A stretch of DNA of 64,000 nucleotides from an uncultured Phycisphaera sp. (GCA_964646605.1 CAZYEX010000137.1:35580-99579), one strand, 5' to 3'; counted from the first letter of the stretch, positions 18,748-60,652 are shown. Notes: generated from the sequence alone by a model not told the origin. Translations and numbers: made by a program.

Positions 18748-19632
18748 TCACTCCGCCTCGGCCAGCCCGTGCTCGCAGAACGCTTCGGGAAGGTAATCGA
18801 TCACGTCCAGCGCCGTCATGGACCATCGACCGAGTTCCTCCGCCGCGTAGTCGCCGGCCAGTCCGTGCAGATACACGCCGAGGATCGCGGCCTCGAGCGC
18901 TTCCATCCGTTGTCCCATCAACGCCGCGATGACGCCGGTGAGTACGTCTCCCGTTCCGCCGGTGGCCATGCCCGCGTTGCCCGTTTGGTTGACGTACAGG
19001 CGTTCGCCGTTGGTGACCACCGTCCCGCGCCCTTTCAACACGACCGTACACCCATAGGTCTCGACCAGGGCGCAGGCTGCGGCTCGACGCGACGGCGCGG
19101 AGGCGTCGATCGCCCGATCCACTCCCCGCGCCGCGAGCAAGCGGCGGGCCTCACCCACGTGCGGGGTGAGCACGATACGGCGAGCATTGGGGATGTCGCT
19201 CCGTGGTCCGGCCGCCAGCAGGTTCAATCCATCCGCGTCCACGACAATCGCCCCGCGAAACGCGGACAGCAGCGCCGCGACGACGTCCGGCGTGAGCGAA
19301 TCCCCCAGCCCGGGCCCCAGCGCGATGACATCCGCCGCGAACGCCTCGATCGCGTCGAGCAGCGATTCCACATTCACAGGAAGTGCCCGCAGCGTGGCAC
19401 AAGGCGCCAGCACCCCGATCGAGGCGCGAATCGACTCGGGGGCCAGGATTTGGACAAGCCCCGCCCCGCTGCGCAAGGCGGCATTGGCCGCAAGCGCCGG
19501 CGCGCCCACCATCATCGTCTCGCCCACACATCCGCCGAGGACGACGATCCGCCCGACCTCGCCCTTGTGGGCGTCGTCGCGCCGCATCGGCGCGGCCGCG
19601 ATCTCGTGGGTGACGATCGGCTCAAGGGGCAT
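18748..19632 (-). CDS. nnrD: NAD(P)H-hydrate dehydratase (ADP-dependent (S)-NAD(P)H-hydrate dehydratase, YjeF C-terminal domain family)
   Basis: Carbohydrate-kinase-like fold motifs (VVLGGCVGETMMVGAPALAANAALRSGAGLV, GPGLG, GMATGGTGDVLTGVIAAL). Start at MPLEPIV chosen; the ORF track extends to 19656. Confidence 0.8.
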   Translation of the reverse strand: MPLEPIVTHEIAAAPMRRDDAHKGEVGRIVVLGGCVGETMMVGAPALAANAALRSGAGLVQILAPESIRASIGVLAPCATLRALPVNVESLLDAIEAFAADVIALGPGLGDSLTPDVVAALLSAFRGAIVVDADGLNLLAAGPRSDIPNARRIVLTPHVGEARRLLAARGVDRAIDASAPSRRAAACALVETYGCTVVLKGRGTVVTNGERLYVNQTGNAGMATGGTGDVLTGVIAALMGQRMEALEAAILGVYLHGLAGDYAAEELGRWSMTALDVIDYLPEAFCEHGLAEAE

Positions 19633-20431
19633 GAGGTTCTTGTCCCGATCCGGCAAGCGAGCGTCGGCGGTTGATCATCGAGGCCGCGTACCCGCCGCCG
19701 AATCCGTTGTCGATGTTGACCACGGTCACCCCCGCGGCACAACTGTTGAGCATGGCGAGAAGCGCCGCCAGCCCGTGGAAGCTCGCTCCATAGCCGACGC
19801 TCGTGGGTACCGCGATCACCGGGCAATCCACCATGCCTCCCACCACGCTGGCCAGCGCTCCCTCCATCCCCGCCACCACCACGGCCACGCTCGCCGCTTG
19901 CAGTGCCGCGGCGTGGGCCAAAAGCCGATGAATCCCCGCCACCCCGACGTCATGAAAAGTGGCGACGGTCTGGTCCATGATTTCGCACGTGACCCGGGCC
20001 TCCTCGGCCACGGGCAGGTCGCTGGTCCCGGCGCAAATCACCGCGATCGTGCCATGAGATGGCACTTTCGCTCGCTGCCTCAAAGTAATGGTCCGCGCCG
20101 ATTCGTGGTACTGGGCGGTTGGGTGCCGTCGGGCGATGGCCTCGTACACTTCCTTCGACGCCCGCGTGGCCAGCACGTTGACCTCCGAGGCCGCGCACTT
20201 GCCGAAAATCCCCGCCGCCTGTTCGACCGATTTGCCCTCGCAGTAGATGACCTCCGGAAACCCGCAGCGGATCGCTCGGTGGTGATCGACTTTGGCATAA
20301 CCCAGGTCCTCGAAAGGCATGGCCCGCAGGCGGGTCAAGGCCGCGTCCACCGTCAACCGCCCCGTTCGGAGCGATTCCAGAAGCTCGCGTAGCGCGCTTT
20401 CGGTCATGACCGCCACAGTGTAGCGCGACAT
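19622..20431 (-). CDS. larB: LarB-like PurE-fold protein (AIR-carboxylase-related; nickel-pincer nucleotide biosynthesis carboxylase/hydrolase family)
   Basis: Start at MSRYTVAV...; N-terminal LarB-specific region (TVDAALTRLRAMPFEDLGYAKVDHHRAIRCGFPEVIYCEGKS) followed by a PurE-like core (GTIAVICAGTSDLPVAEEA...VVVAGMEGALASVVGGMVDCPVIAVPTSVGYG). Confidence 0.75.
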   Translation of the reverse strand: MSRYTVAVMTESALRELLESLRTGRLTVDAALTRLRAMPFEDLGYAKVDHHRAIRCGFPEVIYCEGKSVEQAAGIFGKCAASEVNVLATRASKEVYEAIARRHPTAQYHESARTITLRQRAKVPSHGTIAVICAGTSDLPVAEEARVTCEIMDQTVATFHDVGVAGIHRLLAHAAALQAASVAVVVAGMEGALASVVGGMVDCPVIAVPTSVGYGASFHGLAALLAMLNSCAAGVTVVNIDNGFGGGYAASMINRRRSLAGSGQEPHAP

Positions 20432-20616
20432 ACGCTCCTTGGGAAACCTACAACGACGACTCTCGAGCAATTCGGCGGAAAGCCTACGGTTGGGGTGCGG
20501 ATTGCGACGGCCTCCTGCTGGAACCGTCACCAGCCGGGGATCGCCGAGGCTCGACTTGTCGCGTAACGGCGGAACGCTACACTGCTGGGCGTGGGTCTTT
20601 TTGGAAAGGGCTGACC

Positions 20617-21267
20617 ATGCCGAAAAAGATGCTTTCGTTCGGGGCAAGGGTTACAACCGTCGTGGGTCTGTCTTTGGCCGTGGCGCTTGCAGGGGAGGAA
20701 CCTACCATGAAAACCAAATCCTGGAACTTCGACACCGACAAAGCTGGCGAGTTACCCAAGGGCTTTGAAGCGGCTGCTGGAACTTGGAAGGTGGCCGCCG
20801 ATGTTTCCGCTCCCAGCAAGGCCAACGTCCTCACCCAAACGGCCAAAAGCGAAAAATCCGCCTACAACGTCCTGCTCATCAGCGACACGAACTACAAGAA
20901 CCTCGACCTCTCCGTAAAGTTCAAGGCCGTCGCCGGCGAGATCGACCAGGGCGGCGGAGTCGTCTGGCGGGCCAAGGACGCCCAAAACTACTACATCTGC
21001 CGCTACAACCCGCTGGAGGAAAACTTTCGCGTCTACAAGGTCGAAGCCGGCAAACGAACCCAGTTGGGAACCGCCGACATCCCAGCGAAGCCCGGCTGGC
21101 ACACCGTTCAGATCACCATGCTCGGGGACAAAATCGAGTGCCATTACGACGGTGACAAGCGGATCGAAGTCACCGATTCGACATTCCCAAACGGCGGCAA
21201 GATCGGCCTGTGGTCCAAAGCCGACGCCCAGACGAGCTTCGACGATTTGACGGTTTTCTCGGACTAA
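20617..21267 (+). CDS. Secreted DUF1080-like (concanavalin/LamG-like, 3-keto-disaccharide-hydrolase family) protein
   Basis: Signal peptide, then a W..F..(D/K)..G.W.V.DG........L....Y.NLDLSVKFK...GG(V)V(W)R........Y......E..RVYK ... GWH...I...G.KIE....G......D..F..GKIGLW pattern typical of DUF1080. Confidence 0.55.
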   Translation: MPKKMLSFGARVTTVVGLSLAVALAGEEPTMKTKSWNFDTDKAGELPKGFEAAAGTWKVAADVSAPSKANVLTQTAKSEKSAYNVLLISDTNYKNLDLSVKFKAVAGEIDQGGGVVWRAKDAQNYYICRYNPLEENFRVYKVEAGKRTQLGTADIPAKPGWHTVQITMLGDKIECHYDGDKRIEVTDSTFPNGGKIGLWSKADAQTSFDDLTVFSD

Positions 21268-23622: not shown

Positions 23623-24399
23623 GTGCGCCTGAAAGTGTACTTGACTTGTGGGGTGGAAGCCCCCATCGGGCATACGCTCTCCGGCCCGTAATCGAAGGTA
23701 ACGGCGTCGCCGCGAGGCGAGGTCGAGAGCAACCGGAGGTGAACCCTCGGTCCGTAGGATGATCCTTGACACGCTGCCGACGCTACGCGTTGCGGTGCAG
23801 GGCACCGGCGGGCGTAGCCCGCGCAGCGAGTCAAGGACGATTCGGCCGGGCGTGTTGGCGAGTCTGCTGGCCAATGACGAAGCCCAGACCTTTGCGAACG
23901 AGCAAAGGAAGCCTCGTACGCTGAGGGGTAGCGCGATAAAGCGATGCGAGGACGCGCCGGGTGGTTGGCGACGGAACGAGGGGAAGGTCGAGTACATGAA
24001 TCAGGGAGACCTGGCCGTCACGTGAGACGGCCAGGAGTCAGAGCGGCCATAGTAGCGAAGCAGCGGGGTAACGCCCGTGGAGCGAAGGGCCGTAGGAAGG
24101 CGGATTCGTGAAGGGCACCCCGCGGGAAGGGACACCGGCGACAGTGAACTCCGAGAGGAGTTCTAAACAAGCCGGAGACATTCGCGTCCGATGGGCGTGG
24201 GTGGAACCCGCGGTCGCGGGGCCGATCATCAACGCCGGCCGAACGTTTACTTCGCTACGGCAGGCCTCTTCACGATGGTGGAGGCCTATCGCCAGGCGCG
24301 TCAGTCTGTGGCAGTCCACTGACCGGAGAGCCGGATGCGGGAGATCCGCACGTCCGGTTCCGAGGGAGGAGGGACGCACTGCGTCCTTCCTACCCCTAT
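23623..24399 (+). mobile_element. ORF-less bacterial group II intron (ribozyme domains I-VI, no intron-encoded protein), about 777 nt
   Basis: 5' GTGCGCCTGAAAGTGTACTTGACTTG resembles group II 5' ends (GUGYG). Internal AGTAGCGAAGCAGCGGGGTAACGCCCGTGGAGCGAAGGGCCGTAG is recalled as matching a conserved domain II-III block of bacterial group II introns. Domain V GAGCCGGATGCGGGAGATCCGCACGTCCGGTTC with AGC triad at 24328-24360. Domain VI hairpin with bulged A at about 24392, 7 nt from the proposed 3' end. Domain IV is too short (<300 nt) for an RT/maturase. Confidence 0.7.
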
Positions 24400-24589: not shown

Positions 24590-24713
24590 CCGGCGATGAT
24601 TGACGACCAGGTGATCCACGGCACCTGAACGACCCAGGTGGGCTGCTCTGTCTCCAGCCTGACCCGTTGCCTAGCTCATCCACTGCATGGGACCTGGTCG
24701 TCAATCATCGCCG
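24590..24713. repeat. Perfect 22-bp inverted repeat separated by 80 nt (second hairpin/MITE-like element)
   Basis: ccggcgatgattgacgaccagg ... cctggtcgtcaatcatcgccgg. Confidence 0.5.
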
Positions 24714-24976: not shown

Positions 24977-25468
24977 CTACGGGTTCAACAAGTCCGCGAT
25001 GGCCCCCGCGTCGACCGTCCCGTCGACTTGCGAACCGTCATCCGTCGACGGCACGTTAAAGTCGATCGGCACGCGCGGCGGCAGACCGGCCCGGAGACGA
25101 AGAGCGTTCTCAAATAAAAGGATCGCCCGGTTGAGTTGATCGAAAACGATCTCAATGGCGTCGACCAGGAAAGTCGCTTTGGGATCGGGACCGGCGAGGG
25201 GCTCGTCAATCTCGATGATCGAGCGCCCGAAATCCGCCGCCGCGAGCGTTCGGGCCACCCCCGCGCTCACCATGTTTCCAGGCGACCGCCCGGCTAGGGC
25301 CCCCGCCCCCACGTTACGAAGCGGGTTCTGCTCAGTGTTCAGGACTGGTGGAAACGCCGGTGCGACCTGACCGACCGCCAGAGATCCGAACGCCAGAACA
25401 ACGACCGTGCCCAACACCAAGCTTCGCTCGCAAGTCAAGCCGTGCATCATCAGTAATCTCCCGAGCAT
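24977..25468 (-). CDS. Hypothetical small secreted protein (about 163 aa)
   Basis: Start MLGRLLMMHGLTCERSLVLGTVVVLAFGSLAVGQ (signal peptide) preceded by a GGGAGGGAGGAAGGG Shine-Dalgarno-like tract. No family recognised. Confidence 0.4.
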   Translation of the reverse strand: MLGRLLMMHGLTCERSLVLGTVVVLAFGSLAVGQVAPAFPPVLNTEQNPLRNVGAGALAGRSPGNMVSAGVARTLAAADFGRSIIEIDEPLAGPDPKATFLVDAIEIVFDQLNRAILLFENALRLRAGLPPRVPIDFNVPSTDDGSQVDGTVDAGAIADLLNP

Positions 25469-25664
25469 CCCTTCCTCCCTCTCGCCCCCTGCCCGACCTA
25501 TTCTTATTCTTCGGCCAACCCGCCCCCGTGTCAATGTAAAAAACGGCGGAGGTCGCCCCTTCGACACCCTCCGTCCGAGCCCCATCCCGAGGCGTGCCCA
25601 CGGGGCGGCGGACGACGCTCCCGCAGGCCGTTGCCCCTCGTAGCCGACGCCTGGACGACCGGGA

Positions 25665-26021
25665 TCAGACGAACGGGTCATGAACGATCGCCTGGCCGCA
25701 GTAGATGCACTTGGGCAGGCGACGCGAGATGGTCCGGCGACATTTGGGGCAACTCACGGCCCCCTTGGTCACCTTCCCGTCCAGTCTTCCGTCGGACAAG
25801 TCCAGATCATTCATTCGCTGGGCCAGTTCCTCCTCACTGATGTTCAGCTTTTCGCGGACCAAGGTCCACAATGCTTCGACAGCGAGGACGGTTCGGTCCA
25901 GGCGGATGCCCACTTCGTCGGCGGCACGCTCCGATCGCCGCGAAGCGCCTTCCGCGGCCGCCGCCCCAACCGCCTCGCCCATGGTGAATGACGTGCCTCC
26001 CAAAAAACCGTACAAACTCAT
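25665..26021 (-). CDS. Small protein with C-terminal Cys4 zinc ribbon (CPKC...CIYC); last gene of the six-gene operon
   Basis: Start at MSLYGFLGG; 119 aa; 22 bp downstream of the SDR gene. Confidence 0.5.
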   Translation of the reverse strand: MSLYGFLGGTSFTMGEAVGAAAAEGASRRSERAADEVGIRLDRTVLAVEALWTLVREKLNISEEELAQRMNDLDLSDGRLDGKVTKGAVSCPKCRRTISRRLPKCIYCGQAIVHDPFV

Positions 26022-26043
26022 GGCGCTACTCGACCTTCCTTTC

Positions 26044-26757
26044 TCAGTCACCCGCCCGGCGTACGAAGACGGTTTGGCCCGTCGCGTATTGACACGCCGG
26101 CTGGGCAAGCGTGAAGACCATGTCGGCGACGTCCGACGGCTGCAAGGTCTGGGTGTCCGAAAAGGTCGGGAATGCGTCGCGGAGCATTCGCGTTTCGACG
26201 GCCCCTGGAGCCACGCTGAATACACGGATGCGACACTCCCGACCTTCCTCCGCCAGCCCCTTCGTCCACGCGTTGACCCAAGCCTTGGCCGCCCCGTAGG
26301 CCGCGAAACCGGGGAAGGGATCCACGGACGCGATGGACGAGATGTTGACGATCACCCCGCCGCCCTTGCCCTTCATCACCGGCCAAACACGACGACAGGT
26401 GCGATATACCGCCTCGACGTTGATCGACAGAATCTCGGAAAAACGCGCCGCGTCCAACTCCTCGATCGGGCACATCGGCGCCACACCCGCGCAGTTCACC
26501 AAGACGTCGATCCGTCCGAAGCATTTGGCGGTTTCATCCACCAGGGCGTCGATGTCCGCGGCGCGCGAGAGGTCGGTCGGACGCACGTCGCAGCGCCCGC
26601 CCGATTGCACGATCAACCGCTGGGTTTCTTCGAGTTCGCCGGAGGAGCGAGAGGCCGCGACAACTTGGCAACCCTCCGCGGCAAAGCGCTGGCAGATCGC
26701 CCGCCCGATTCCTCGTCCCCCGCCCGTCACCACGACCACACGCTCTGCCATGCCCAC
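26044..26757 (-). CDS. SDR-family short-chain dehydrogenase/reductase
   Basis: TGGGRGIGRAI Rossmann motif, NCAG, catalytic YxxxK (YGAAKAW). Confidence 0.85.
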   Translation of the reverse strand: MGMAERVVVVTGGGRGIGRAICQRFAAEGCQVVAASRSSGELEETQRLIVQSGGRCDVRPTDLSRAADIDALVDETAKCFGRIDVLVNCAGVAPMCPIEELDAARFSEILSINVEAVYRTCRRVWPVMKGKGGGVIVNISSIASVDPFPGFAAYGAAKAWVNAWTKGLAEEGRECRIRVFSVAPGAVETRMLRDAFPTFSDTQTLQPSDVADMVFTLAQPACQYATGQTVFVRRAGD

Positions 26758-26868
26758 CCCACTTTTCCCGGCGTTTCTCGGCTTGACTATGATAATTGCC
26801 GTAAGGCTGCGGTGTCCATTCCAAATTCGCGTCTCGTTTGGAATGCCGCCTCTGAACGGCGGACCCTC

Positions 26869-27459
26869 TCAGGCGGCGACGATTTTGCGCAGCTCGTCGA
26901 GTCGGCGAATGACGAAATCGGCCTGGGGGGCGTAGCTGGGCGGCGTTTGTTCGCCGATCATCAGCACGGTGCGCGTGCCGGCGCTTTTGCCGGAAAGAAT
27001 GTCGAAAAGATAGTCGCCGACCATCCAACTGCGCGCCGGGTCGGCGTGCAATTCCTCGCAGATGGAGAGCACCGGCGCGGCCGAAGGTTTGATCGCGCCA
27101 TCCTCGCGCGTACGGACGGCGTCCACGACGATGGCGAATCGACCAAGTATGAAGTCGACGACGGTGCGGGTGTTGCGGGTAAGAATGGCGATGGGATACC
27201 CCCCCGATCGCAAGTCATGCAGGACTTCGACGGCATCCTCGTACAGCGTCGCCTCCCGCGCCGCTTGCCATTCGTGCCGCGCGAGGACCTCGACGGCCCG
27301 GCCGCGATCGATGTCGTCCATGACCTCCAGCGCCTCCAAAATCGGCCCCTGGGCGATTCCGATTTCGCGGCGGATGGCGTCGAAATCCAGATAGGGGCGA
27401 GTGAGCGTGCCGTCGAGATCGAGGATCACCGCGGACCGATAGGGCGGTTGAGAATCCAT
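26869..27459 (-). CDS. HAD-superfamily hydrolase (phosphatase, PGP-like subfamily)
   Basis: Motif I ILDLDGTLT; motif III/IV region (MVGDYLFDILSGKSAG). Confidence 0.8.
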   Translation of the reverse strand: MDSQPPYRSAVILDLDGTLTRPYLDFDAIRREIGIAQGPILEALEVMDDIDRGRAVEVLARHEWQAAREATLYEDAVEVLHDLRSGGYPIAILTRNTRTVVDFILGRFAIVVDAVRTREDGAIKPSAAPVLSICEELHADPARSWMVGDYLFDILSGKSAGTRTVLMIGEQTPPSYAPQADFVIRRLDELRKIVAA

Positions 27460-27465
27460 GGCTGG

Positions 27466-28965
27466 TTACCGAAAGCGATACATGTTGGCCTGAGCGGGAT
27501 CGGCCAGCCCCACGAGGTTGTAGGGTGCGATGAGCTCACGTACCTGCGAATGGAACTCTCGCACATCTGGGGTCGGCGACCGGCGCTCGGATGACAAAGC
27601 GCGGACACTCTCATACGCCCTCTCGACCGCGGCGCGAAACCCACCGTCATGGGCCATGAGGAAGCCGTCGTGGTCGCCGTGCCAACCTCCTCGCCGGCGG
27701 TGTTCGCTGCACGTCGCCCCCGCGAAATAAAGCATCGAAAACGCGACCATGGGCTCGAAATCACGGAATCCGCAATAGCAACCGTGAATGATGGCGTCGA
27801 GCAGGTTGATCTCTCCCTTCAGCGAACGGTCGTACTCCTCCAGTCGTCGGGTGCGATCGGCGTCATCGCGCGATTCCGCGAGGATGCGGACCACACGCTC
27901 GATGCCCAGGAGCGTATGGGCGTTGCCCGCGCTATGCAGGGCGTCGAGGAAGTACGCGGTGTGCGGCAGCATCGCCCAGTTGCGCCCCGCGGCACGTTCC
28001 GCCCGTCGTTGCAACCGAGCCGTCCGTTGAAGCGGCTGCACGGGCCGCGCTTCGGCGAACTGCTCGGCGATCGACGGGAAGCGGCGAAGAAGCGTCGCCC
28101 ACTCATCTTCCGGCGACATCTCCGCATCGTCCTCAGAAAACCCATCCGGATTGCCGTCGAGCATGAATCCGGCGCTGGTAATTCCGTTGTCGAAGCGCAG
28201 CACCCACATCCAGCCCCCGTCGAAGACGTGGTGCAACGCGGCCGCATCGCACGGGAAGGGGTGATCGCCCGTCGCGCCGCCCAGCCGTTCATGGATATCG
28301 TGCCAGCGTCGAACGCCCCGGAAGTGAGAGAAAACCGCCCGCGAGTGCGTCCGCAGGTCGGTCGGCCTTACGGGGATATCCAAGTACGACGCCAATGCGC
28401 TCGCGGGGCCCGAGGCATCGACGACAAAGCCCGCGCGGACATGCAGAGGCGTTCCTTCTCGCGCGGCGACAATCCGCCAAGGATCATCGTCCGTCATGGA
28501 CTCGATGAGGGTCCGATCGAAGTACGGGATCGAGGCGGCCTGCACTTCGCGCACCAGAAAGTGATCCACCTCGGCGCGAAACCAGTGCGTGTCGCCGTTC
28601 TCCTCGTCGGGATTGGCCGCCACCAGCAACTCGTTGGCGTGGTCGGCGCTGGGCGCGAACGCCTCCCCGGCGCGGTGATGAAAGTAGCTGAAACCCCGCT
28701 TGAGACCGCAGGCGACGTCCGGGTACGTGCGTTTCCACGAACCATAGGATGTAAGCGGCAGCAACCGGGGCAAATCGTAACCTTGACAAAGTCCGCGAAG
28801 CACGAGGTCGGCTGTGGGCGTCGAGGACTCGCCGATGGCGAACCGCGGGTGCGTCCCGCGTTCGAGGAGCACAGGCCGCAGACCGATCCGTTGGCACAGC
28901 AGTGCGGTCAGGCTCCCCCCGAACCCACTGCCGATGATGGCCACGTCCGCGACGATCTCGGTCAA
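27466..28965 (-). CDS. FAD-dependent oxidoreductase of the tryptophan-halogenase-like family (halogenase fold; WxWxIP motif degenerate)
   Basis: N-terminal GxGxxG (VAIIGSGFGGS), AIGESSTP block, GWMWV region resembling, but not matching, the halogenase WxWxIP signature. Confidence 0.7.
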   Translation of the reverse strand: MTEIVADVAIIGSGFGGSLTALLCQRIGLRPVLLERGTHPRFAIGESSTPTADLVLRGLCQGYDLPRLLPLTSYGSWKRTYPDVACGLKRGFSYFHHRAGEAFAPSADHANELLVAANPDEENGDTHWFRAEVDHFLVREVQAASIPYFDRTLIESMTDDDPWRIVAAREGTPLHVRAGFVVDASGPASALASYLDIPVRPTDLRTHSRAVFSHFRGVRRWHDIHERLGGATGDHPFPCDAAALHHVFDGGWMWVLRFDNGITSAGFMLDGNPDGFSEDDAEMSPEDEWATLLRRFPSIAEQFAEARPVQPLQRTARLQRRAERAAGRNWAMLPHTAYFLDALHSAGNAHTLLGIERVVRILAESRDDADRTRRLEEYDRSLKGEINLLDAIIHGCYCGFRDFEPMVAFSMLYFAGATCSEHRRRGGWHGDHDGFLMAHDGGFRAAVERAYESVRALSSERRSPTPDVREFHSQVRELIAPYNLVGLADPAQANMYRFR

Positions 28966-28968
28966 GGG

Positions 28969-29886
28969 TCAGGCTCCGCACTCGCACCGAACCGCCGGCG
29001 ACACCCGCTGCGTTCGATTCATTTCCGCAAGTCGCTCGATCCGCCGCGCCCGGCACAGCCCGCAACCCGCAAGCAACTCCGCATCCCAAAGGTCCACAAA
29101 GACCCGTCCCCGCGCCAAGGACAGACCGAATTCGTGGACCGCCTCCATCGCCCGCAGATCGGGCCGGTGCATCTTGGCGTTGTTTTCGCTGCGCAGCGGC
29201 ACAATCGAGCAGCACTCCACGCCGATCGAGAACGCGTGCTCGATGCTCCGCTTCGCCCACGCCGTACCTTCATCGAGCGTCTGAAACGGCGCGGGAAGAA
29301 GTATAAACGCGCGAACCGGAATCCCGCGCCGGGACAAAAACGAGGTCGCCCGCTCAAAGTCCTCAAGCGTCATCCCCTTGTCGAGTCGGGGAAGAACACG
29401 CGGGTCGATCGTTTCCAGACCCATAGCCACTTGGAGCTGAGGACGAAGCTGATCGGCGAATTCCAGACACCGTCGATCGACGAGCTTGGGGTGGCATTCT
29501 ACGATGACGGTTTTGCGATCCTTCACCAATTCCGCAATTCGAGGCCGGTCGGCGCGAGGGACAGCCTGCTCATCGAAGAAGTTGCCCGAGTTGTAGAGCT
29601 TCATGTGCGGAGCAAACGGTAATTGCCGCAAGGCCCACTCCACCTGCCCCGCCACAGCGCCCGACGGCACCCGCTGCTCGGTCGTGTTCTTCCACAAATC
29701 GCAGAAAACGCAGCGAAACGGGCACTCCCTGTTGGTGATGAAAATCGTGGCCACGTCCTCCACGACGCCAGCCGCGGTGTACTCGGGTTCGACGAAGAAT
29801 GCGTAGGGACGAGTGGGGTCCACCACGTTGCGCGAACCGCGACGCCGGAGAACCGGCGGATCGTCGAGAAGGGAAGTCTCAGCCAT
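28969..29886 (-). CDS. Radical SAM enzyme (CxxxCxxC cluster motif)
   Basis: CPFRCVFCDLW near the N-terminus; about 305 aa core with a C-terminal CxxC...CxC extension. Confidence 0.75.
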   Translation of the reverse strand: MAETSLLDDPPVLRRRGSRNVVDPTRPYAFFVEPEYTAAGVVEDVATIFITNRECPFRCVFCDLWKNTTEQRVPSGAVAGQVEWALRQLPFAPHMKLYNSGNFFDEQAVPRADRPRIAELVKDRKTVIVECHPKLVDRRCLEFADQLRPQLQVAMGLETIDPRVLPRLDKGMTLEDFERATSFLSRRGIPVRAFILLPAPFQTLDEGTAWAKRSIEHAFSIGVECCSIVPLRSENNAKMHRPDLRAMEAVHEFGLSLARGRVFVDLWDAELLAGCGLCRARRIERLAEMNRTQRVSPAVRCECGA

Positions 29887-31210
29887 CGAAGGCGGCCTGG
29901 AATGCCCGGCGGTACGTCTGCGGCGATAGAGGAAAACGCTCGGTCAGAACAGCCACATCAAGCACGCCGTGTTGGAAACGCCGTTTCTCAAAGACGGGCA
30001 TCTTCAGACCCGTTACGGCCGCGACGCCCCGAGCGACGATCTCCCCTTTCAGTTGATACAAGCGATCGTGCCGCCAATTCGTCAGGGCGATGAACGGAAT
30101 CCGTTCCGCCACCTCGACGACGTCGGCCAGAGTAAACGGACTGAACGTGCGAAAACCCAGCGACCGCGCCGGAGCGAACGTCCGAGTACATGCGCGGCTC
30201 AGCCCGCCGCTGTAGACCAGCGAATGCTTGACCGAATCCACGCCCCAACCTTCCTGGTAAAGCAGCCGGTTGTTGAGCACGCTGCGGATGGTCAGCTCCG
30301 GGTTCTCCTCGATGGGATAGTCCTTGAGGTTCTCGTCCCCGCCGTCGCCGTCGATCAGATACGTCCAGTCGGGGTAGCGTCGGCGAATCCCACGGCAGAG
30401 TGCCAACATCATGGCCCCCGCTTGTACGTCCAGCGGTTTATAATCCTCGATCACCCGAACGGCCTCCTCCGGGTTCAACGCATCCTCGGGTACTTCGACC
30501 GTTTCCAGAAACATCCCCAGTTGTAGCGCGTCCAGAAACCGCCGGGCCTGCTCGACATCCCGCCCGCCGCCATTCGTGCAAAGCGTGAACGCCTTTAGCC
30601 GCGATGGGTCCAGCCCCATCGTGAGCATCAGGTGATACGTCAAAAGGAACACGGCCCCGCTGTCGATCCCGCCGGAAAAGCAGACTCCGATCGCAGCCCC
30701 GGGCGCAAGGGTTCGCAGCCACTTGGCGATCCCGTCCGCGGCGGCGGAGACGTAGCGACGACCGATGTCTTCCAAGTCCGTCGCAAGCGGATCGGGCGAG
30801 GGCGTGAGGTAGCGCCGATACGTGGGGTTGGGGTCCGGGCAGCCCAACAGGGCAATCTCGGTGATGTAATGGGCCGGAACCATCCGCGTATACGTGGGAT
30901 GGAACTGATCGCCGAGCCCTTCGCGCCGGGTCCACGCCGCAATCGCGTCGATGCGATGGGCGACGACGAGCGCCGGACCGTCGCTCCGTTTGGCGATGAA
31001 ATAGCGCATGGGCACGGACAAGGAGCGGGCCATGCGCACGGTCGCCCCCTCGCGCCCGACCAGGGCAAACGCCCCTTCGATTTTGCGAACCCCCTCGAAA
31101 TCACCCCTCCCCACGCGCGACCGCGCCTCGTCGAGCGAAACGTTGAAAAGAATGTTCGATGACGGGTCGGTGAGGTCCACAACCTCCCGAAGCGAGTGAA
31201 CGACTGGCAT
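29879..31210 (-). CDS. Asparagine-synthetase-like ATP-pyrophosphatase (PP-loop SGGxDS) lacking the N-terminal glutaminase cysteine
   Basis: Start at MPVVHSL (no Cys2 nucleophile). GVCFSGGIDSGAVF PP-loop. AsnB C-terminal-domain-like synthetase region. Confidence 0.75.
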   Translation of the reverse strand: MPVVHSLREVVDLTDPSSNILFNVSLDEARSRVGRGDFEGVRKIEGAFALVGREGATVRMARSLSVPMRYFIAKRSDGPALVVAHRIDAIAAWTRREGLGDQFHPTYTRMVPAHYITEIALLGCPDPNPTYRRYLTPSPDPLATDLEDIGRRYVSAAADGIAKWLRTLAPGAAIGVCFSGGIDSGAVFLLTYHLMLTMGLDPSRLKAFTLCTNGGGRDVEQARRFLDALQLGMFLETVEVPEDALNPEEAVRVIEDYKPLDVQAGAMMLALCRGIRRRYPDWTYLIDGDGGDENLKDYPIEENPELTIRSVLNNRLLYQEGWGVDSVKHSLVYSGGLSRACTRTFAPARSLGFRTFSPFTLADVVEVAERIPFIALTNWRHDRLYQLKGEIVARGVAAVTGLKMPVFEKRRFQHGVLDVAVLTERFPLSPQTYRRAFQAAFDG

Positions 31211-31313: not shown

Positions 31314-32687
31314 TCAAGCGTGCTTGGGCGGCTGCGGTCCGCGCGTGGCGGACGCAACGGTGGACAATTCGCCCGTCGGCAGCGATCCGTCCATTCTTTC
31401 CGCGATGCTCCTGGTGAGCGAGCGCAGGTCGATGCCCAAGACCGATTCGAGCGTCGCCAGCGTTTCGGTAAGCATCCGTGCGCGGCCCAGGGCCGCGCCG
31501 GCGATCGCCTGACCGCTGCCGCTGTCGATCACAGTGACGTGGCCCAATTGGACGTTGGAGATGGTCTTGGTGATTTCTTGAACGACCCCGGGAAGCATTT
31601 CCGCGAGCATGACTTTCAGGGCGTCGGGGTTCCGGGAGATGGCTTGTCCGATGCACTCGATCGCCGCAGCCCGGGCCTTGCCTTCTTCGAGGACCGTCGC
31701 AGCCGCCCCCTCCGCACTGGCCTTCGCGGCGTCGCGATCGGCGTTGGCCTTTTTCACCAGGGTGGCCAAGAGCCTCGCCTCCTCGGCCTGAGCCGCGGCG
31801 GTCTGTGCCTCCGCCTCCTTGATGGACGCCTCCCGGGACAACTCCGCCTGTCGAATGCGCAGAAGGTTGTTCGCTTCGGCGATGGTCTTGTCGGCACCCA
31901 GACGGGCCGACTCGGATTTCTGACGTCCCGTCGCCTCCGCCGTGCGAGCCTCGGCGTCACGCTCCGCCTTCGCCCGACGGGCCAAAGCCTCGGACTCGGC
32001 CTCCTTGATGTCCGCATCGGACTTGCGCTGGGCCTCGAACTGCCGGGCGCTGGCACGCACATCCGCCGACGCCTTGCGGGCGATCGACTCCAAGTACTGG
32101 TCGTCGTCATGCACGTTCTGGATGTTCACGCTGTCGATGACCATGCCCAGCTTGCGAAAATCGTCGGTCACCTCGTTCATCACCGTGGCCACGAATTTGT
32201 CGCGGTCCTCGACGATCTCCTCCGGAGTCATCTTCCCGATCACCGCCCGCAGCCCGCCCTCCAGCGTCTCCCGCGCCACCCGCTCCATCTCCTGCTGCGG
32301 TTCGCCGAGGAACCGCTCGATCGCGTTGCCGCGGATGTCCGGATCGGACGACACCTTGACGTTGGCCACGCCGTTCACGTTGACGGGGATCATCTTCCCC
32401 CCCCCGGACTGGGCCTTGACCTCCAGGGCCACCTGCATGTTGCGCAGACTCAGCAGGGCCACCTTTTCGAGGATCGGGATCACCACCGTGCGTCCGCCGA
32501 TCAACGTTCGGTAACCCATCGTCGGACTGGAACTGCGCCCGCTGATCACCAGAAGCTCGCTGGGGTTGCCCACCACGGTGAACTTCGCCACCAGAGCGAT
32601 GAACGTCGCCAGGACGAACAAGACGCCCACGCCGATCATGATGCCCGTCCCGACCACGTCCGATTGACTCAACATCCACGCGCTCAT
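31314..32687 (-). CDS. Flotillin / SPFH (band-7) family protein
   Basis: N-terminal TM, SPFH domain, long Ala/Glu-rich coiled coil (flotillin-type EA repeats). Confidence 0.85.
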   Translation of the reverse strand: MSAWMLSQSDVVGTGIMIGVGVLFVLATFIALVAKFTVVGNPSELLVISGRSSSPTMGYRTLIGGRTVVIPILEKVALLSLRNMQVALEVKAQSGGGKMIPVNVNGVANVKVSSDPDIRGNAIERFLGEPQQEMERVARETLEGGLRAVIGKMTPEEIVEDRDKFVATVMNEVTDDFRKLGMVIDSVNIQNVHDDDQYLESIARKASADVRASARQFEAQRKSDADIKEAESEALARRAKAERDAEARTAEATGRQKSESARLGADKTIAEANNLLRIRQAELSREASIKEAEAQTAAAQAEEARLLATLVKKANADRDAAKASAEGAAATVLEEGKARAAAIECIGQAISRNPDALKVMLAEMLPGVVQEITKTISNVQLGHVTVIDSGSGQAIAGAALGRARMLTETLATLESVLGIDLRSLTRSIAERMDGSLPTGELSTVASATRGPQPPKHA

Positions 32688-33328
32688 GCGTTTTCTCCCG
32701 ACTTGGGTTCGTTTACGAATTCGTATTCTTCCTTGGACACAACTTCCGCCACGCCGTTGCTCAGCCCCACCACCACCACGCGATCCCCGACCTTGAAGCG
32801 ATCATCCCCGCGCCGCGCCACCGCGGCGAGGAAGCGCTCTCCATTCCTCGAGGGCAACGCGACCTCCCCGCGTCGAGAAGCCTCCAGGGCGATGGTCACG
32901 CGGGCCGCTTTGTTGAGATAATCGTCCGGGGTCAGGTCGCTTCCGACCCCCGATCGTTTCAACGCCCGAAGCGCCTGATGGACGAGTTGCCCCACCACCA
33001 GTGCCCCGATCGTGGCACACGCCAGCACCACCCCGGAGCGAACCCGGGCCACGTAGGTCAGGGTCGTCCCGAGAAGCCCGAAGGTGACCAGGAAGTAGAC
33101 GGCGAACTGCATCGAGAACCAACTCGACAGCGACAGCCCGTGTCCACCGTGGTGCTCCGTATCCACCCCGTGATGAAGGTCGCCCCCCGCGTGGGCGTCC
33201 ATTCCCATGCCCCCGGAAAGGTCGGCATGAACGTCGGTGCCGCCGTGACTGCCGAACAGCACGGAGAGCAGCAACAGCCCGCCGCCCACGATCAGGGCGA
33301 TGATGTACAACATAGCCACCGTGGACAT
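32684..33328 (-). CDS. NfeD-like membrane protein (flotillin partner, YqiJ-like, C-terminal OB-fold)
   Basis: N-terminal TM helices, His-rich loop, C-terminal OB-like domain; overlaps the flotillin start by 4 nt. Confidence 0.7.
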   Translation of the reverse strand: MSTVAMLYIIALIVGGGLLLLSVLFGSHGGTDVHADLSGGMGMDAHAGGDLHHGVDTEHHGGHGLSLSSWFSMQFAVYFLVTFGLLGTTLTYVARVRSGVVLACATIGALVVGQLVHQALRALKRSGVGSDLTPDDYLNKAARVTIALEASRRGEVALPSRNGERFLAAVARRGDDRFKVGDRVVVVGLSNGVAEVVSKEEYEFVNEPKSGENA

Positions 33329-57011: not shown

Positions 57012-58499
57012 CTACGACGGCGGCGAAATGCTGAGCGTGCGGACTTCAATGGCGACCACGGGCGACGGGCCGTCGAAGAGCACGGTGTCGGATCCCAGCG
57101 TGCGGTCCACCGGCGGGGGGAAAACCCACACGGAACGGAGAAGCTCCTCCGGATCGGGAGGGTTGTTCCAATCGGAGTCCGTACACTCCTCACAATGTGG
57201 ATCTCCCTCTGAAATGTCGATGTCTTCCTGTACGATTTCGCGGTCCAGCGTGAGCACGGCCTTTTCGCCGTTGGCGTCAACGATGCGGCGCCTCGTGACA
57301 CGGTAGATGTGCCCCTCAAGTTCATCCACGAACGTGGTCCCCGAAGGGAACATCGAAACCAGCATCGCCGCCGGTTTGCCTGCGATCGTGTCAGGAGGGA
57401 CCCGGATTTCCGACGGGACGTGGGTCGGGCGTTTTGGTGAGTCGTCCGGGGCGCTGCGATACGCGAGCGAACTAGGAAGCTCAACCTGGACCCGCCAGGC
57501 GACGGGTAGCAACACGTCATTGTCGCCATTGAGGGCCGCCGGCGACACGGGGACTGCGGGGCGTTCGAACTTGTACGGATCGGGAACGAGCTGGTCGTTC
57601 TGGCGGGCGTAGCGGTGCGTGCTCTGCGTGCGCCGCAACGTGACGTAATACAGGTCAAAGTTTCGCGTCGAGCCGATGGCGGCGGCAGCTTCGACCACCA
57701 ATTCGAGCGATTGTTCCGGAGTGATCGCGGGGGGCGTTCGCGGACGGGCGGGTCCCGCCGGTTGGCGAAGGCGATGCAGCGCTGCCCAAAAGAACTTTCG
57801 GTTGGACAGAAGGTCTCGCCAGCGGTCGTCCAACGGCGGGTAGCTGCGATCGGCCACGTTCACCTGCGGGAAGTAGAACGAGGCTTGTTGCCTGAAGCGA
57901 TCGCTCAAATTCACATCCTTTTCGGGGTCGTCACACGGAGGGTAGGCGGGATCCAGAAGATTGGTGACCTGCTCGAGTCGCCAAGGGTCCTCGGCAACAG
58001 TCTGGCCGTTGCTCAACCGCACGTTCCACATGTTTAATGCATGGACGCGGGTATCGCTGTAAAGGAGGATGCTGCAGAACGCATCCTCCGGTTTGTTCTC
58101 GCTGATGAACTCCTTGGCGAGTTGACGATCATAGAACAAATCCCCGGCGAGACTCCCGGAGTGGATCGCGGGTTCTTCGAATGGCGGACCGTCGCTCGGG
58201 TCCTTGATGGCCACCATACGGACGCCCGCCGGGCGCAGCAGGGCCTCGAGCGTGGCCCGGGCGGCGGCGGTGGTGGATTGCTCGATGGTGTGTTCGCTGA
58301 GGGTCCGGGCCCGATCCCAGGCTACGGGGAACATCGTGGCGACCATGATCAATCCCAGACCCAGAATCACGATGGCGATCATCATCTCGACAAGGGAAAA
58401 GGCACGACCATCAGAGCACCAGGCGCAAGCCTGGTGACACTGCGGAGGCGTGTCCGCGGGCTCGCGCCCGCGGCTCTGATGTGCTATACGCTGCTTCAT
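57012..58499 (-). CDS. Prepilin-type N-terminal cleavage/methylation-domain protein (pseudopilin-like), long leader
   Basis: DGRAFSLVEMMIAIVILGLGLIMVA class-III signal/N-methylation motif after a 31-aa leader; 495 aa. Confidence 0.7.
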   Translation of the reverse strand: MKQRIAHQSRGREPADTPPQCHQACAWCSDGRAFSLVEMMIAIVILGLGLIMVATMFPVAWDRARTLSEHTIEQSTTAAARATLEALLRPAGVRMVAIKDPSDGPPFEEPAIHSGSLAGDLFYDRQLAKEFISENKPEDAFCSILLYSDTRVHALNMWNVRLSNGQTVAEDPWRLEQVTNLLDPAYPPCDDPEKDVNLSDRFRQQASFYFPQVNVADRSYPPLDDRWRDLLSNRKFFWAALHRLRQPAGPARPRTPPAITPEQSLELVVEAAAAIGSTRNFDLYYVTLRRTQSTHRYARQNDQLVPDPYKFERPAVPVSPAALNGDNDVLLPVAWRVQVELPSSLAYRSAPDDSPKRPTHVPSEIRVPPDTIAGKPAAMLVSMFPSGTTFVDELEGHIYRVTRRRIVDANGEKAVLTLDREIVQEDIDISEGDPHCEECTDSDWNNPPDPEELLRSVWVFPPPVDRTLGSDTVLFDGPSPVVAIEVRTLSISPPS

Positions 58500-59560
58500 G
58501 GCGTTGTTTTCGCCACCGTTTCGCCGATCGGTCCGCGGATGACGACCCCGCTGATGCGATGCACGTAGAACGGCTGGGCCGAGTCGATCAGGAACTTCCG
58601 TTTCTGGCCCGGGTCCCCCGCGGCCGCAAACAAGGATTCGTCGTACACCAACAGTCCGTCAACCGAGGGGAAGTTCAGGGCCGTCCCCTCGCTCTCCGCC
58701 ACCAAGTCGACGTCCTCGATGCTCTTGTCGGGGTTGATCGGAAGCTCGCCCTTGCTGTTGTCCTGCCGGTAGTATTTCTTGATATCGTCGCGGACCTCCA
58801 ACCCCGTTAGGTCGCCGCCGCGGTTCTCCGCAGCGTCGGCGTCCAGGTCGCGGATGAGCACGTCGCGGCGCACGATCAGTTCGCCCGTCGCGGAATACAT
58901 CACGGTGAAGAAGTTGCGATGCCGCTGGGCCTGATCGGTGTCGGCGTTGGCCGGGGAGAAAAGGTCGCTATGGGCGAGTTCATCGGGATCGAAGCGCCGC
59001 GTCTTGTCGGGTTCCGTCTTTTCATCGTAGACCGCGTAGCGCGGCACGACGCGCATGGGAGCGGGAAGCGAGTAGCTGCGCTCGGGCACCACGTTGAACA
59101 CGTTTGCCCACGCCTCCCGGGTGCCTGGATCGTCGTCCAGCGTGACCTGCTCTATGGCCATGATGCGCTGCACGCCTTCGCCGTCCAGAAAAAAGAACAA
59201 ACCGCTTTCGTTCCCCACCAGCAGCGTCCGTTTGTTACCCGCGCTATCGGTGATGAACAGCGGTTCCCTTTGCGCTTCGCCCGACTGCAAGGCCCGGGCC
59301 CGCGCCGTCATGAATACGCCGCTGATCGTGTTTTGGGCTTCGGCGATGCGCCGATCGCGCCACATGGTGCTGGCCGCCGGAACCACCATCGTGAGCAGGG
59401 CGACGACGATGGCGACGACGATGACCATCTCGACGAGCGTAAAGGCCGAAGTTCGAAGTCCGAAGTTCGAAGTTCGAAGACCGCATCCGCCATTCACGGA
59501 CTCAACGGCGCCTCGCCCTTTTCCGAACTTTGAACTTTGAACTTTGAACTTCATGTTCAC
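58496..59560 (-). CDS. Prepilin-type N-terminal-domain protein (pseudopilin-like)
   Basis: SAFTLVEMVIVVAIVVALLTMVVPA after a 38-aa leader whose codons are heptamer repeats (KFKVQSSKF ... LRTSNFGLRTS). GTG start. Confidence 0.75.
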   Translation of the reverse strand: MNMKFKVQSSKFGKGRGAVESVNGGCGLRTSNFGLRTSAFTLVEMVIVVAIVVALLTMVVPAASTMWRDRRIAEAQNTISGVFMTARARALQSGEAQREPLFITDSAGNKRTLLVGNESGLFFFLDGEGVQRIMAIEQVTLDDDPGTREAWANVFNVVPERSYSLPAPMRVVPRYAVYDEKTEPDKTRRFDPDELAHSDLFSPANADTDQAQRHRNFFTVMYSATGELIVRRDVLIRDLDADAAENRGGDLTGLEVRDDIKKYYRQDNSKGELPINPDKSIEDVDLVAESEGTALNFPSVDGLLVYDESLFAAAGDPGQKRKFLIDSAQPFYVHRISGVVIRGPIGETVAKTTP

Positions 59561-60603: not shown

Positions 60604-60652
60604 CTTCTTCTCTCTTCTAACTTCAGTCTTCCGTCTTCGATCTTCAGTCTTC

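Follow-up and report, generated by a model that had tools for sequence, protein, structure and literature searches.

A conserved gene module joining an AsnB-like ATP-pyrophosphatase, a RaSEA-like radical SAM enzyme and a halogenase-family flavoprotein

The window analysed is a 64,000-nucleotide stretch of DNA from an uncultured Phycisphaera sp. (GCA_964646605.1 CAZYEX010000137.1:35580-99579). Six open reading frames lie on its minus strand at positions 25665-31210, and gene calls made independently on the public contig of identical sequence concur with them. In order from the first gene to the last, the features are:

29879-31210, minus strand: AsnB-like ATP-pyrophosphatase (AsnBL), 443 aa, starting MPVVHS, with a degenerate Ntn-like N-domain and a PP-loop synthetase domain
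28969-29886, minus strand: RaSEA-like radical SAM enzyme, 305 aa, with an 8-nt overlap with the AsnBL stop
27466-28965, minus strand: flavin-dependent halogenase-family protein (FDH-like), 499 aa, 3 nt past the radical SAM gene
26869-27459, minus strand: HAD-IA phosphatase, 196 aa, a lineage-specific fourth gene of the module
26789-26818, minus strand: promoter-like hexamer pair, TGGACA and TATCAT with an 18-nt spacer, 10/12 matches to consensus, identified by consensus match alone
26044-26757, minus strand: classical SDR, 237 aa, adh_short 188 bits, outside the conserved module
25665-26021, minus strand: zinc-ribbon protein with a C-terminal Cys4, 118 aa, outside the conserved module

The gaps between successive genes are -8, 3, 6, 111 and 22 nt; the public gene call for the SDR starts two codons downstream of the ORF start given above. 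The first five proteins matched the Pfam families expected of them (Asn_synthase, Radical_SAM, DAO/Trp_halogenase, HAD_2/Hydrolase and adh_short), the AsnBL match being confined to residues 173-306 (44.6 bits), while the zinc-ribbon protein gave no match in Pfam or NCBIfam. The HAD protein scored 64.2 bits with HAD_2 and 66.9 bits with Hydrolase and carries DLDGT as its DxDxT motif I; the SDR translation carries TGGGRGIG and YGAAK, and the Cys4 motif of the zinc-ribbon protein is CPKC...CIYC. The genes, gaps, domains and motifs given in the original prediction were thus borne out by the ORFs and the public gene calls, the one correction being the length of the last protein (118 aa, not 119). 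None of the six proteins matched a PADLOC defence model. No terminator-like signal above background lies between the six genes. The same strand continues upstream with a flotillin gene (31314-32687) and an NfeD-like gene (32684-33328), and downstream with a 234-aa ORF (24977-25681); since the co-directional run extends past the six genes, strand and spacing alone cannot delimit an operon.

Neighbourhoods were compared across about 90 related loci, each count being taken over the subset of loci that was informative for it. The recurring order is AsnBL, radical SAM, halogenase-like flavoprotein, and nothing else. The radical SAM gene directly follows AsnBL in 57/71 informative loci and the flavoprotein gene is third in 34/62, with spacings in gene-called loci of -8 to -20 nt for the first pair and -4 to +45 nt for the second. 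By phylum, the flavoprotein is third in 10/10 loci of Acidobacteriota, 18/25 of Planctomycetota and 0/13 of Bacteroidota, and it likewise takes third place in the Gemmatimonadales loci. Because the Bacteroidota have no flavoprotein gene beside the AsnBL/radical SAM pair, and some genomes (L082) have AsnBL without its partner genes, the three steps are not always linked. HAD orthologues (59-71% identity) come right after the flavoprotein solely in the closest relatives (L002 and L083/L084; in L083 the two genes overlap by 4 nt), so the HAD gene is not a general member.

No SDR orthologue adjoins the module among the related loci examined. One locus (L090) has a 64%-identical SDR orthologue 16 nt upstream of a zinc-ribbon orthologue with the module absent from that locus, and in another (L089) the zinc-ribbon orthologue adjoins unrelated genes without the SDR. 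The zinc-ribbon family is narrow (34 database clusters of proteins of about 117 aa; PF13248 zf-ribbon is present in two clusters), and its gene stands beside the module on this contig only. The SDR and zinc-ribbon genes thus make up a separate pair that adjoins the module here but has no relation to it, and the suggestion that the zinc-ribbon protein is a precursor or carrier for the module fails, as its gene recurs apart from it. The functional unit is AsnBL, the radical SAM enzyme and the flavoprotein, plus the HAD phosphatase in this lineage. Of the six-gene functional cassette originally proposed, then, the tie between AsnBL, a small radical SAM enzyme and a halogenase-fold flavoprotein stands, but not the grouping of all six, which were never found together at any other of the roughly 90 related loci. 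The three-enzyme combination is not described as a unit in Pfam, NCBIfam or the searchable literature, in agreement with the earlier statement that no described pathway could be assigned; it is present in hundreds of genomes of at least nine phyla, beyond the Planctomycetota on which attention had been focused, and its three superfamilies are each well studied.

From its PP-loop, acidic motif and modelled two-domain fold, AsnBL is a member of the AsnB/PP-loop synthetase superfamily. Its own family is isolated (739 hits in 1.84 billion representatives), shows 58-79% identity over at least nine phyla and is always about 443 aa long; in 65 sequences drawn from at least nine phyla, nearly a third of positions (31%) reach 95% identity or more. 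The PP-loop SGGIDSG (179-185) and the acidic motif DG[DE]GGDE, which aligns to SGEGSDE of ASNS, are invariant. The residue at position 2 varies (P, Q, H, I, V or N) but is never Cys; since the homologues are also about 443 aa and align from query residue 1, the MPVVHS start is correct, and the earlier description of a repurposed, glutaminase-less homologue that keeps the PP-loop (SGGIDS) holds. The AF2 model (pLDDT 80) gave as top Foldseek matches human ASNS, beta-lactam synthetase, carbapenam synthetase and TsnB9 (about 460 columns, TM ~0.6; E 1e-10 to 1e-12 for ASNS, beta-lactam synthetase and CarA); the single AsnBL sequence recovered no PDB chain at E <=1. A glutamine-hydrolysing asparagine synthetase was rejected because there is no N-terminal Cys and the TIGR01536 score is 36.7 bits, below the cut-off of 267.1. 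A lasso peptide cyclase was likewise rejected, there being no adjoining precursor ORF and no neighbour family across the related loci resembling the B protein (RRE plus transglutaminase-like protease).

The known glutaminase-less AsnB homologues (beta-lactam and carbapenam synthetases, lasso cyclases, TsnB9, and TsrC, ScdTA and PesC, the last three of which comprise peptide amidases and a nitrile synthetase) share with AsnBL the two-domain fold, the PP-loop and acidic G-[DE]-G-x-DE, and an N-terminal Cys that is absent or altered in its use. However, the sequence similarity is limited to about 130 residues, AsnBL is far more conserved and more widely spread than these natural-product enzymes, and no beta-lactam, lasso or RiPP genes lie near the module. 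The fold matches beta-lactam and carbapenam synthetases; no clavam or carbapenem gene was found in any locus.

The radical SAM protein carries CPFRCVFC at residues 55-62, a CxxxCxxC motif that is invariant in its family. Its nearest curated families in NCBIfam are RaSEA and MnmL/YtqA, tRNA enzymes that cleave C-N bonds, RaSEA acting in obligate complex with an amine-transferring partner (PMC11298593). Its length is close to that of the RaSEA model TIGR01210 (305 versus 313 aa) and its score with that model is 76.9 bits, far below the cut-off of 212.15; for this reason, and because its partner is AsnB-like and not ArcS, it was rejected as a true RaSEA. Genes for ArcS or TGT are absent from all of the loci. 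The ArcS-RaSEA system of Euryarchaeota nevertheless pairs a small TIGR01210/Elp3-like radical SAM enzyme with an amine-attaching enzyme, and this pairing logic, with nitrogen supplied without glutamine, is common to the module, where the two genes are translationally coupled. The differences are that ArcS is an ATP-independent TGT/PUA-type enzyme whereas the module has an AsnB-fold PP-loop ATPase, that the module's hosts are not archaea but bacteria without archaeosine, and that the halogenase-like flavoprotein is an addition. The coupling of AsnBL to a RaSEA-like enzyme suggests a general two-step installation of nitrogen (or another group) without glutamine, for which, to our knowledge, archaeosine synthesis has been the only example so far. 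Four additional conserved cysteines at the C-terminus of the radical SAM protein could hold an auxiliary cluster or, equally, form a zinc ribbon.

Sequence comparison clearly relates the flavoprotein to the free-phenol halogenases CtcP (tetracycline 7-halogenase, phmmer against PDB sequences 1.2e-46) and PltM (phloroglucinol, 6e-44), matched over about 400 residues and closer to it by far than any other match. Common to all three are the FAD motif GxGxxG (here GSGFGG, residues 12-17), HPRxxxGES and the K-x-G-F site of the catalytic lysine: K89 in GLKRGF aligns with the lysine of CtcP HGQKSNFGF and is kept in 37/38 family members. By contrast, WxWxIP is replaced by WMWVLR, and by WxWxL[R/Q/H]F across the family, and no polyketide or pyrrole pathway lies nearby. 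With no canonical WxWxIP and no flavin reductase near the module, halogenation stays a candidate activity, unproven, beside hydroxylation as the predicted alternative.

Beyond the three enzymes described here, the module is linked to a secreted CRTAC1-type (FG-GAP/UnbV_ASPIC) beta-propeller, whose gene edge lies at most 500 nt from the module in 27/80 loci from at least five phyla; the density of CRTAC1-family genes is 0.40 per kb within 500 nt, against at most 0.03 per kb at 6-10 kb. Cytochrome partners accompany these propellers. Many genomes carry the module without a nearby CRTAC1 gene, and there is none in the 64,000-nt window. Chorismatase-like or RidA-like genes occur in seven of the Bacteroidota/Chlorobiota clusters, and LivJ-type binding proteins occur both in these clusters and beside a distant paralogue. 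In most Planctomycetota the module sits in unrelated, housekeeping-like contexts. A search of about 90 loci, out to 1.5 kb from the module, revealed no conserved small ORF that could encode a precursor peptide, and neither an RRE nor a SPASM domain was detected with Pfam and NCBIfam profiles. A RiPP biosynthetic cluster was rejected on these grounds, the zinc-ribbon ORF being unlinked to the module outside this contig. No riboswitch was found.

The reading that we prefer, tentatively, is that the module encodes a cytoplasmic pathway in which a single small molecule, with an aromatic (phenolic) carboxylic or amino acid as the most plausible candidate, is tailored by ligation to an amide, by radical chemistry and by halogenation or hydroxylation of an aromatic ring. 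What the data show directly is the gene linkage, the conservation, the retention of fold and motifs and the lack of a precursor ORF; the chemistry of each step and the kind of substrate we infer by analogy with characterised enzymes. AsnBL, whose ligase activity is proposed because PP-loop and acidic motif are retained, would adenylate the carboxylate with ATP and couple an amine; as it has no glutaminase nucleophile, glutamine would not be the nitrogen source. A radical step on the adduct would follow, carried out by the radical SAM enzyme, which is translationally coupled to AsnBL and probably forms a complex with it; C-N cleavage leaving the nitrogen behind, as in ArcS-RaSEA and MnmL, is our favoured guess, and C-C or C-S bond formation the alternative. 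The flavoprotein would halogenate or hydroxylate the electron-rich ring and, in this lineage, the HAD enzyme would remove a phosphate. A small molecule is preferred over a macromolecule because of this phosphatase in the operon, the lack of a conserved small ORF, RRE or SPASM, the near-neutral pI of the module proteins (6.7, 8.0 and 6.0) and the presence in clusters of chorismatase- or RidA-like genes and LivJ-type binding proteins. Against this, the conservation of AsnBL, about 60% identity from one phylum to another, is on the level of core informational proteins, which is unusual for secondary metabolism and would better fit a macromolecular or universal substrate; the nearest named relatives of the radical SAM protein all act on tRNA; WxWxIP and a flavin reductase are missing; the three steps are not always linked; and the window has no CRTAC1 gene.

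Given the linkage to CRTAC1 in many phyla, the product may serve as a ligand or cofactor for the propeller/cytochrome system. A stronger form of this is distinctly unlikely as a whole. In it the module, with or without the flavoprotein, would make a new organic cofactor or ligand from an aromatic acid or amino acid without a peptide precursor; this would be exported for CRTAC1-type propellers, which with multihaem cytochromes would form a novel redox system of the periplasm, common in Bacteroidota, Acidobacteriota, Planctomycetota, Verrucomicrobiota and allies. If true, this would be a functional counterpart to PQQ and the propeller dehydrogenases that depend on it. PqqE with PqqB/C (PQQ) and QhpD with QhpG (cysteine tryptophylquinone) resemble the module in that a radical SAM and a ring-oxidising enzyme are linked to periplasmic beta-propeller/cytochrome redox proteins, and QhpG is weakly similar to the module flavoprotein. 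Unlike these sets, the module has an AsnB-like ligase and no precursor peptide gene or SPASM domain, and its linked propellers are FG-GAP/UnbV_ASPIC proteins instead of PQQ or quinohaemoprotein dehydrogenases. The repeated linkage gives a concrete handle on the module and on bacterial propeller proteins together.

Alternatively, the three enzymes could mature a protein encoded elsewhere, be it a CRTAC1-type propeller that is yet to be exported or a peptide with no linkage to the module. They would provide it with a crosslink or with a quinone-like cofactor derived from the protein, in the manner of QhpD/QhpG, LodB/GoxB, lasso cyclases or peptide C-terminal amidases; this is possible but doubtful. 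The CRTAC1 genes immediately beside the module in those 27/80 loci would fit such a role, as would the weak NCBIfam matches of the flavoprotein to QhpG (55 bits), GoxB and LodB and a nearly invariant 50-residue stretch of AsnBL (292-341), predicted to be disordered as for a partner-binding segment. AsnB-like enzymes acting on peptides also have precedent in lasso cyclases, TsrC, ScdTA and PesC (PMC13060819). However, CtcP and PltM, which act on free substrates, match the flavoprotein about 100 bits better than QhpG, no conserved small ORF, RRE or SPASM accompanies the module, many genomes including this window carry it with no CRTAC1 gene nearby, and the HAD phosphatase is hard to place.

An archaeosine-like modification of a tRNA or rRNA nucleobase is unlikely. 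Here the PP-loop enzyme would activate a base or side-chain carboxylate and attach an amino acid, the RaSEA/MnmL-like enzyme would trim it and the flavoprotein would oxidise the result. Nucleobases are common targets of PP-loop enzymes (TilS, QueC, ThiI), and this idea also draws on the tRNA-acting relatives of the radical SAM protein, the very high conservation and fixed length of AsnBL, the housekeeping-like contexts in most Planctomycetota and a tRNA U5-methyltransferase-like gene that adjoins AsnBL in three Planctomycetaceae loci. Yet the RaSEA score is far under its cut-off with no ArcS or TGT partner, PUA, THUMP and TRAM domains were not detected with Pfam, the pI values are atypical of RNA binders, a CtcP/PltM-type flavoprotein has no precedent in such a pathway, and the links to CRTAC1 and HAD are left unexplained.

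It is very unlikely that the module inserts sulfur, with AsnBL adenylating a carboxylate or carbonyl and sulfur delivered via Cys124 and a radical SAM auxiliary cluster to give a thiocarboxylate, thioamide or C-S bond, by analogy with LarE or with BioB/LipA. C124, in a flexible GCPDPxP loop, is 100% invariant (65 sequences, at least nine phyla), the four extra cysteines of the radical SAM protein could hold the cluster, and in Gemmatimonadales genes of the DUF2249 and FeS_assembly_P types are found close upstream of the module. But those cysteines are equally explicable as a zinc ribbon, C124 is missing from distant paralogues, no gene for a sulfur carrier or a desulfurase shows consistent linkage across loci, and no thiolating member of the AsnB family is known. 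Finally, the original model of one lineage-specific natural-product operon of six genes, in which the zinc-ribbon protein would act as a regulator, a carrier or a precursor, is highly improbable: shared direction, short gaps and the lack of a terminator-like signal favour it, but the six occur together nowhere else among the loci examined, the SDR/zinc-ribbon pair is found without the module, unrelated flotillin and NfeD genes share the run, and a promoter-like site, itself weak evidence, lies within the 111-nt HAD-SDR gap.

The module also occurs in cultured organisms available for genetics, for example Maioricimonas sp. JC845 and Acidobacteriaceae bacterium KBS 96.

Six open reading frames (ORFs) are present on the minus strand where the original prediction had placed them, and the same genes appear in independent calls on the identical public contig:

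29879-31210, minus strand, ORF of the AsnB-like protein (AsnBL, 443 aa)
28969-29886, minus strand, ORF of the radical SAM protein
27466-28965, minus strand, ORF of the halogenase-family flavoprotein
26869-27459, minus strand, ORF of the HAD phosphatase
26044-26757, minus strand, ORF of the SDR
25665-26021, minus strand, ORF of the zinc-ribbon protein

The gaps claimed between them (-8, 3, 6, 111 and 22 nt) are correct, and the expected domains were recovered with Pfam: Asn_synthase (residues 173-306 only), Radical_SAM, DAO/Trp_halogenase, HAD_2 and adh_short; the zinc-ribbon protein had no Pfam match. The reported motifs (the SGGIDS PP-loop, the MPVVHS start, WMWVLR in place of WxWxIP, and CPKC...CIYC) can be seen in the translations. 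The prediction had, however, treated the six genes as one unit and looked to Planctomycetota for its conservation, and in these respects it must be revised; the SDR and zinc-ribbon genes are never found beside the module in other loci, and the module spans many phyla. Furthermore, the same-strand run takes in unrelated genes, NfeD-like and flotillin genes upstream and a 234-aa ORF downstream of the six, so that a unit cannot be defined by strand and spacing. The upstream pair (31314-33328, minus strand), directly adjoining the module, encodes a flotillin-like SPFH/Band_7 protein of 457 aa and, with a 4-nt overlap, an NfeD-like membrane protein of 214 aa; its adjacency to the module is not conserved in other genomes.

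In a scan of one genome per species, AsnBL relatives were encoded at more than 538 loci, 80 of which were retained for study. These come from Planctomycetota, Verrucomicrobiota, Acidobacteriota, Bacteroidota, Rhodothermales, Calditrichota, Marinimicrobia, Chlorobiota, Abditibacteriota and Deltaproteobacteria; Gemmatimonadota and Myxococcota are also represented among the protein matches. The radical SAM gene directly follows AsnBL in 57 of the 71 loci with enough downstream sequence, overlapping it by 8-20 nt in all gene-called loci, and the flavoprotein gene comes after the radical SAM gene in 34/62, at a spacing of -4 to +45 nt where genes were called. The flavoprotein is third in 10/10 Acidobacteriota and 18/25 Planctomycetota loci and in 0/13 from Bacteroidota. 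The HAD gene recurs solely in the nearest relatives (L002 and L083/L084; 59-71% identity), and in L083 the two neighbours, flavoprotein and HAD, share 4 nt. A promoter-like site was tentatively identified in the 111-nt gap that precedes the SDR gene. The zinc-ribbon protein belongs to a narrow family (34 database clusters); one orthologue, in locus L090, lies 16 nt after an SDR orthologue (64% identity) with the module absent nearby, and another, in L089, lies amid unrelated genes. From this pattern of recurrence, the six-gene region is a conserved three-gene module, joined in this lineage by the HAD gene, beside a separate two-gene unit. The object of interest is therefore the AsnBL/radical SAM/flavoprotein triad with its HAD gene (26869-31210) and not the six-gene block. 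Redrawn in this way it is real and worth pursuing, and it is a feature of many phyla, not of Planctomycetes in particular.

In L014 the radical SAM and flavoprotein genes seemed to be fused, but this was an artefact of ORF calling, since about 300 nt of non-coding sequence lie between them, and the long database "fusions" P0307 and P0385 look like frameshifted translations. Candidate precursor peptides were sought as conserved small ORFs beside the module, but all the clusters obtained were shadows of large conserved genes, read antisense or out of frame. Rfam gave neither a riboswitch nor a leader near the module; its sole matches in the window, an SRP RNA and a group II intron fragment, lie elsewhere. 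With PADLOC there was no match to a defence system. Full-text literature searches yielded no description of the triad, nor is it described by a model in Pfam or NCBIfam; the enzymes are familiar, but their combination is conserved, widespread and undescribed.

The absence of an N-terminal Cys from AsnBL, part of the original prediction, holds for every family member: each homologue is about 443 aa long and its alignment begins at residue 1, which fixes the start codon. AsnBL sits in the AsnB superfamily but is not AsnB proper, being Cys-less and scoring far below the AsnB cut-off. In the AlphaFold model (pLDDT 80) both domains match human and E. coli asparagine synthetase, as well as beta-lactam synthetase, carbapenam synthetase and TsnB9; sequence likeness to solved structures is restricted to the PP-loop core. 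A phmmer search of PDB sequences with AsnBL returned nothing at E <= 1, and the family profile reached ASNS alone (E 0.009). Only 739 of 1.84 billion cluster representatives, mostly fragments, match at E <= 0.001; by these sequence comparisons, the family is an isolated island. SGGIDSG and DG[DE]GGDE, the latter aligning to SGEGSDE of ASNS, are invariant, and adenylate-forming chemistry is probably retained. Plain ammonia-dependent asparagine synthesis was considered and rejected, as it leaves the radical SAM partner, the divergent N-domain and the isolation of the family unexplained. The gene context of beta-lactam synthetases and lasso cyclases is absent around AsnBL. Known roles of AsnB-like enzymes comprise amidation and the formation of lactams, lassos and nitriles (PMC13060819). 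In ammosamide biosynthesis an AsnB-like enzyme shares a pathway with a halogenase, though the scaffold there is a peptide (PMC12715798).

When 65 AsnBL sequences covering nine or more phyla are compared, 31% of positions reach 95% identity or more. The N-domain has a GCPDPxP loop whose Cys124 (window ~30839-30841) is invariant in all 65; this loop is of low confidence in the model. The most conserved 50 residues, 292-341 (DGDGGDENLKDYPIEENPELTIRSVLNN...SGGLSR; window ~30188-30337), are nearly invariant, and yet are modelled at pLDDT < 50; such a segment would fit one that becomes ordered on a partner or substrate. This segment and the Cys124 loop are candidate contacts with partner or substrate. 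Distant paralogues (32-40% identity) were also traced for their gene context. One of them (P0281, 38% identity; L092, 8001-11658) lacks the GCPDPxP Cys and has no radical SAM partner at that locus; it follows a complete Liv-type ABC transporter and overlaps by 8 nt the gene for a 782-aa protein that is uncharacterised and matches nothing in Pfam, next to which is a sigma-54 activator. This context is suggestive, not decisive.

The radical SAM protein carries CPFRCxxC and, towards its C-terminus, a CxxC...CxC that is likewise conserved. Among curated families RaSEA fits it best (76.9 bits; cut-off 212), with MnmL/YtqA next and weak; in several database sources its homologues bear the label "TIGR01210 family" or "archaeosine synthase beta-subunit". 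For the step that this protein would perform, RaSEA and MnmL are the closest precedents; both break a C-N bond and leave the N on the substrate. ArcS joins lysine to preQ0 and RaSEA, which is active solely in complex with ArcS, then turns the adduct into archaeosine (PMC11298593). This pair is the nearest system in its working, since an amine-attaching enzyme has a radical SAM partner in both, but the module falls outside it on HMM score and on partner identity. The flavoprotein is clearly related to the phenol halogenases CtcP (1.2e-46) and PltM (6e-44), with weak matches to QhpG, LodB and GoxB. Homology places it in the halogenase family, as does the lysine of its GLKRGF motif, which is kept in 37/38 family members, although the canonical WxWxIP is absent, being consistently WxWxL[R/Q/H]F.

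De novo clustering gave one further recurrent neighbour family, the CRTAC1-type proteins (secreted beta-propellers that carry FG-GAP repeats, a UnbV_ASPIC domain and, in some cases, TPR regions). Their genes are present in 34/80 loci, in 27 with the nearest edge less than 500 nt from the module, and their density is 0.40 per kb within 500 nt compared to at most 0.03 per kb at 6-10 kb. They are co-directional upstream in Bacteroidota, convergent in Acidobacteriota, and directly downstream of the module in one Calditrichota and one Phycisphaerales locus; none matches the window by tblastn. This linkage suggests that the product of the module serves an extracytoplasmic CRTAC1 system.

In eight Bacteroidota/Chlorobiota loci (L038, L046, L051, L059, L070, L071, L077, L029) a large conserved cluster surrounds the AsnBL/radical SAM pair. 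It encodes TPR-CRTAC1, CRTAC1 and Reg_prop propellers, a c554-like multihaem cytochrome with a membrane anchor, a haem protein whose middle domain is hydrazine-synthase-alpha-like, a RidA-like protein and two LivJ-type binding proteins, and has the look of a periplasmic redox system not yet characterised. A chorismatase-like protein (TIGR04444, 141 bits) occurs in two Bacteroidota loci. In seven Acidobacteriota loci (L015, L022, L024, L032, L039, L050, L073) a stand-alone RnfD/NqrB-like membrane protein (~295 aa) is encoded between CRTAC1-family genes, which are convergent with or divergent from the triad. In Gemmatimonadales only (L085/L086, 6062-6636), the triad has directly upstream of it genes for an FeS_assembly_P protein and a DUF2249 protein of 80 aa.

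Gene linkage, overlaps and co-conservation show that the three enzymes act in one pathway; the chemistry beyond this we infer. A cytoplasmic small-molecule pathway is tentatively favoured, in which AsnBL would form, without glutamine, an acyl-adenylate and then an amide, its coupled radical SAM partner would transform the adduct, the flavoprotein would halogenate or hydroxylate an aromatic ring and, in this lineage, HAD would dephosphorylate. The operonic phosphatase, the affinity of the flavoprotein to free-phenol halogenases, the lack of a precursor ORF or of any RRE, SPASM or RNA-binding domain, and the chorismatase-like and aromatic- or amino-acid-type binding proteins of the larger clusters all count for it; it is opposed chiefly by how very strongly AsnBL is conserved and by the relatives of the radical SAM protein, which act on tRNA. 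Alternatively, the module could mature a protein or peptide, an unlikely reading given the missing precursor, RRE and SPASM. RNA modification on the pattern of archaeosine synthesis would agree with the tRNA-acting relatives, and is rather less likely again with RNA-binding domains absent; the pI values of AsnBL, the radical SAM protein and the flavoprotein are 6.7, 8.0 and 6.0. Sulfur insertion centred on the invariant Cys124 and a possible auxiliary cluster is improbable. The natural-product operon of six genes, correctly spaced as they are, is the least likely, its last two members parting from the module elsewhere.

Other features of the window were noted:

24326-24399, plus strand, group II intron catalytic-domain match (Rfam, 54.7 bits)
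24602-24699, minus strand, bacterial small SRP RNA (Rfam, 53 bits)
19622-20647, minus strand, ORF with a C-terminal AIR-carboxylase domain (PF00731), ~5 kb from the module
57012-62844, minus strand, five tandem genes with an N-terminal prepilin-type motif, F[ST]LVE[ML]...

The intron match and the SRP RNA are 200 nt apart on opposite strands; only short, fragmented ORFs occupy 22.4-24.6 kb, and the intron may be ORF-less or degraded. The PF00731 ORF is possibly LarB-like (nickel-pincer cofactor synthesis), and is of interest only for LarE, the usual partner of LarB and a PP-loop enzyme acting on a carboxylate, with no established link to the module. The five tandem genes are typical of the expanded pseudopilin-like families of Planctomycetes.
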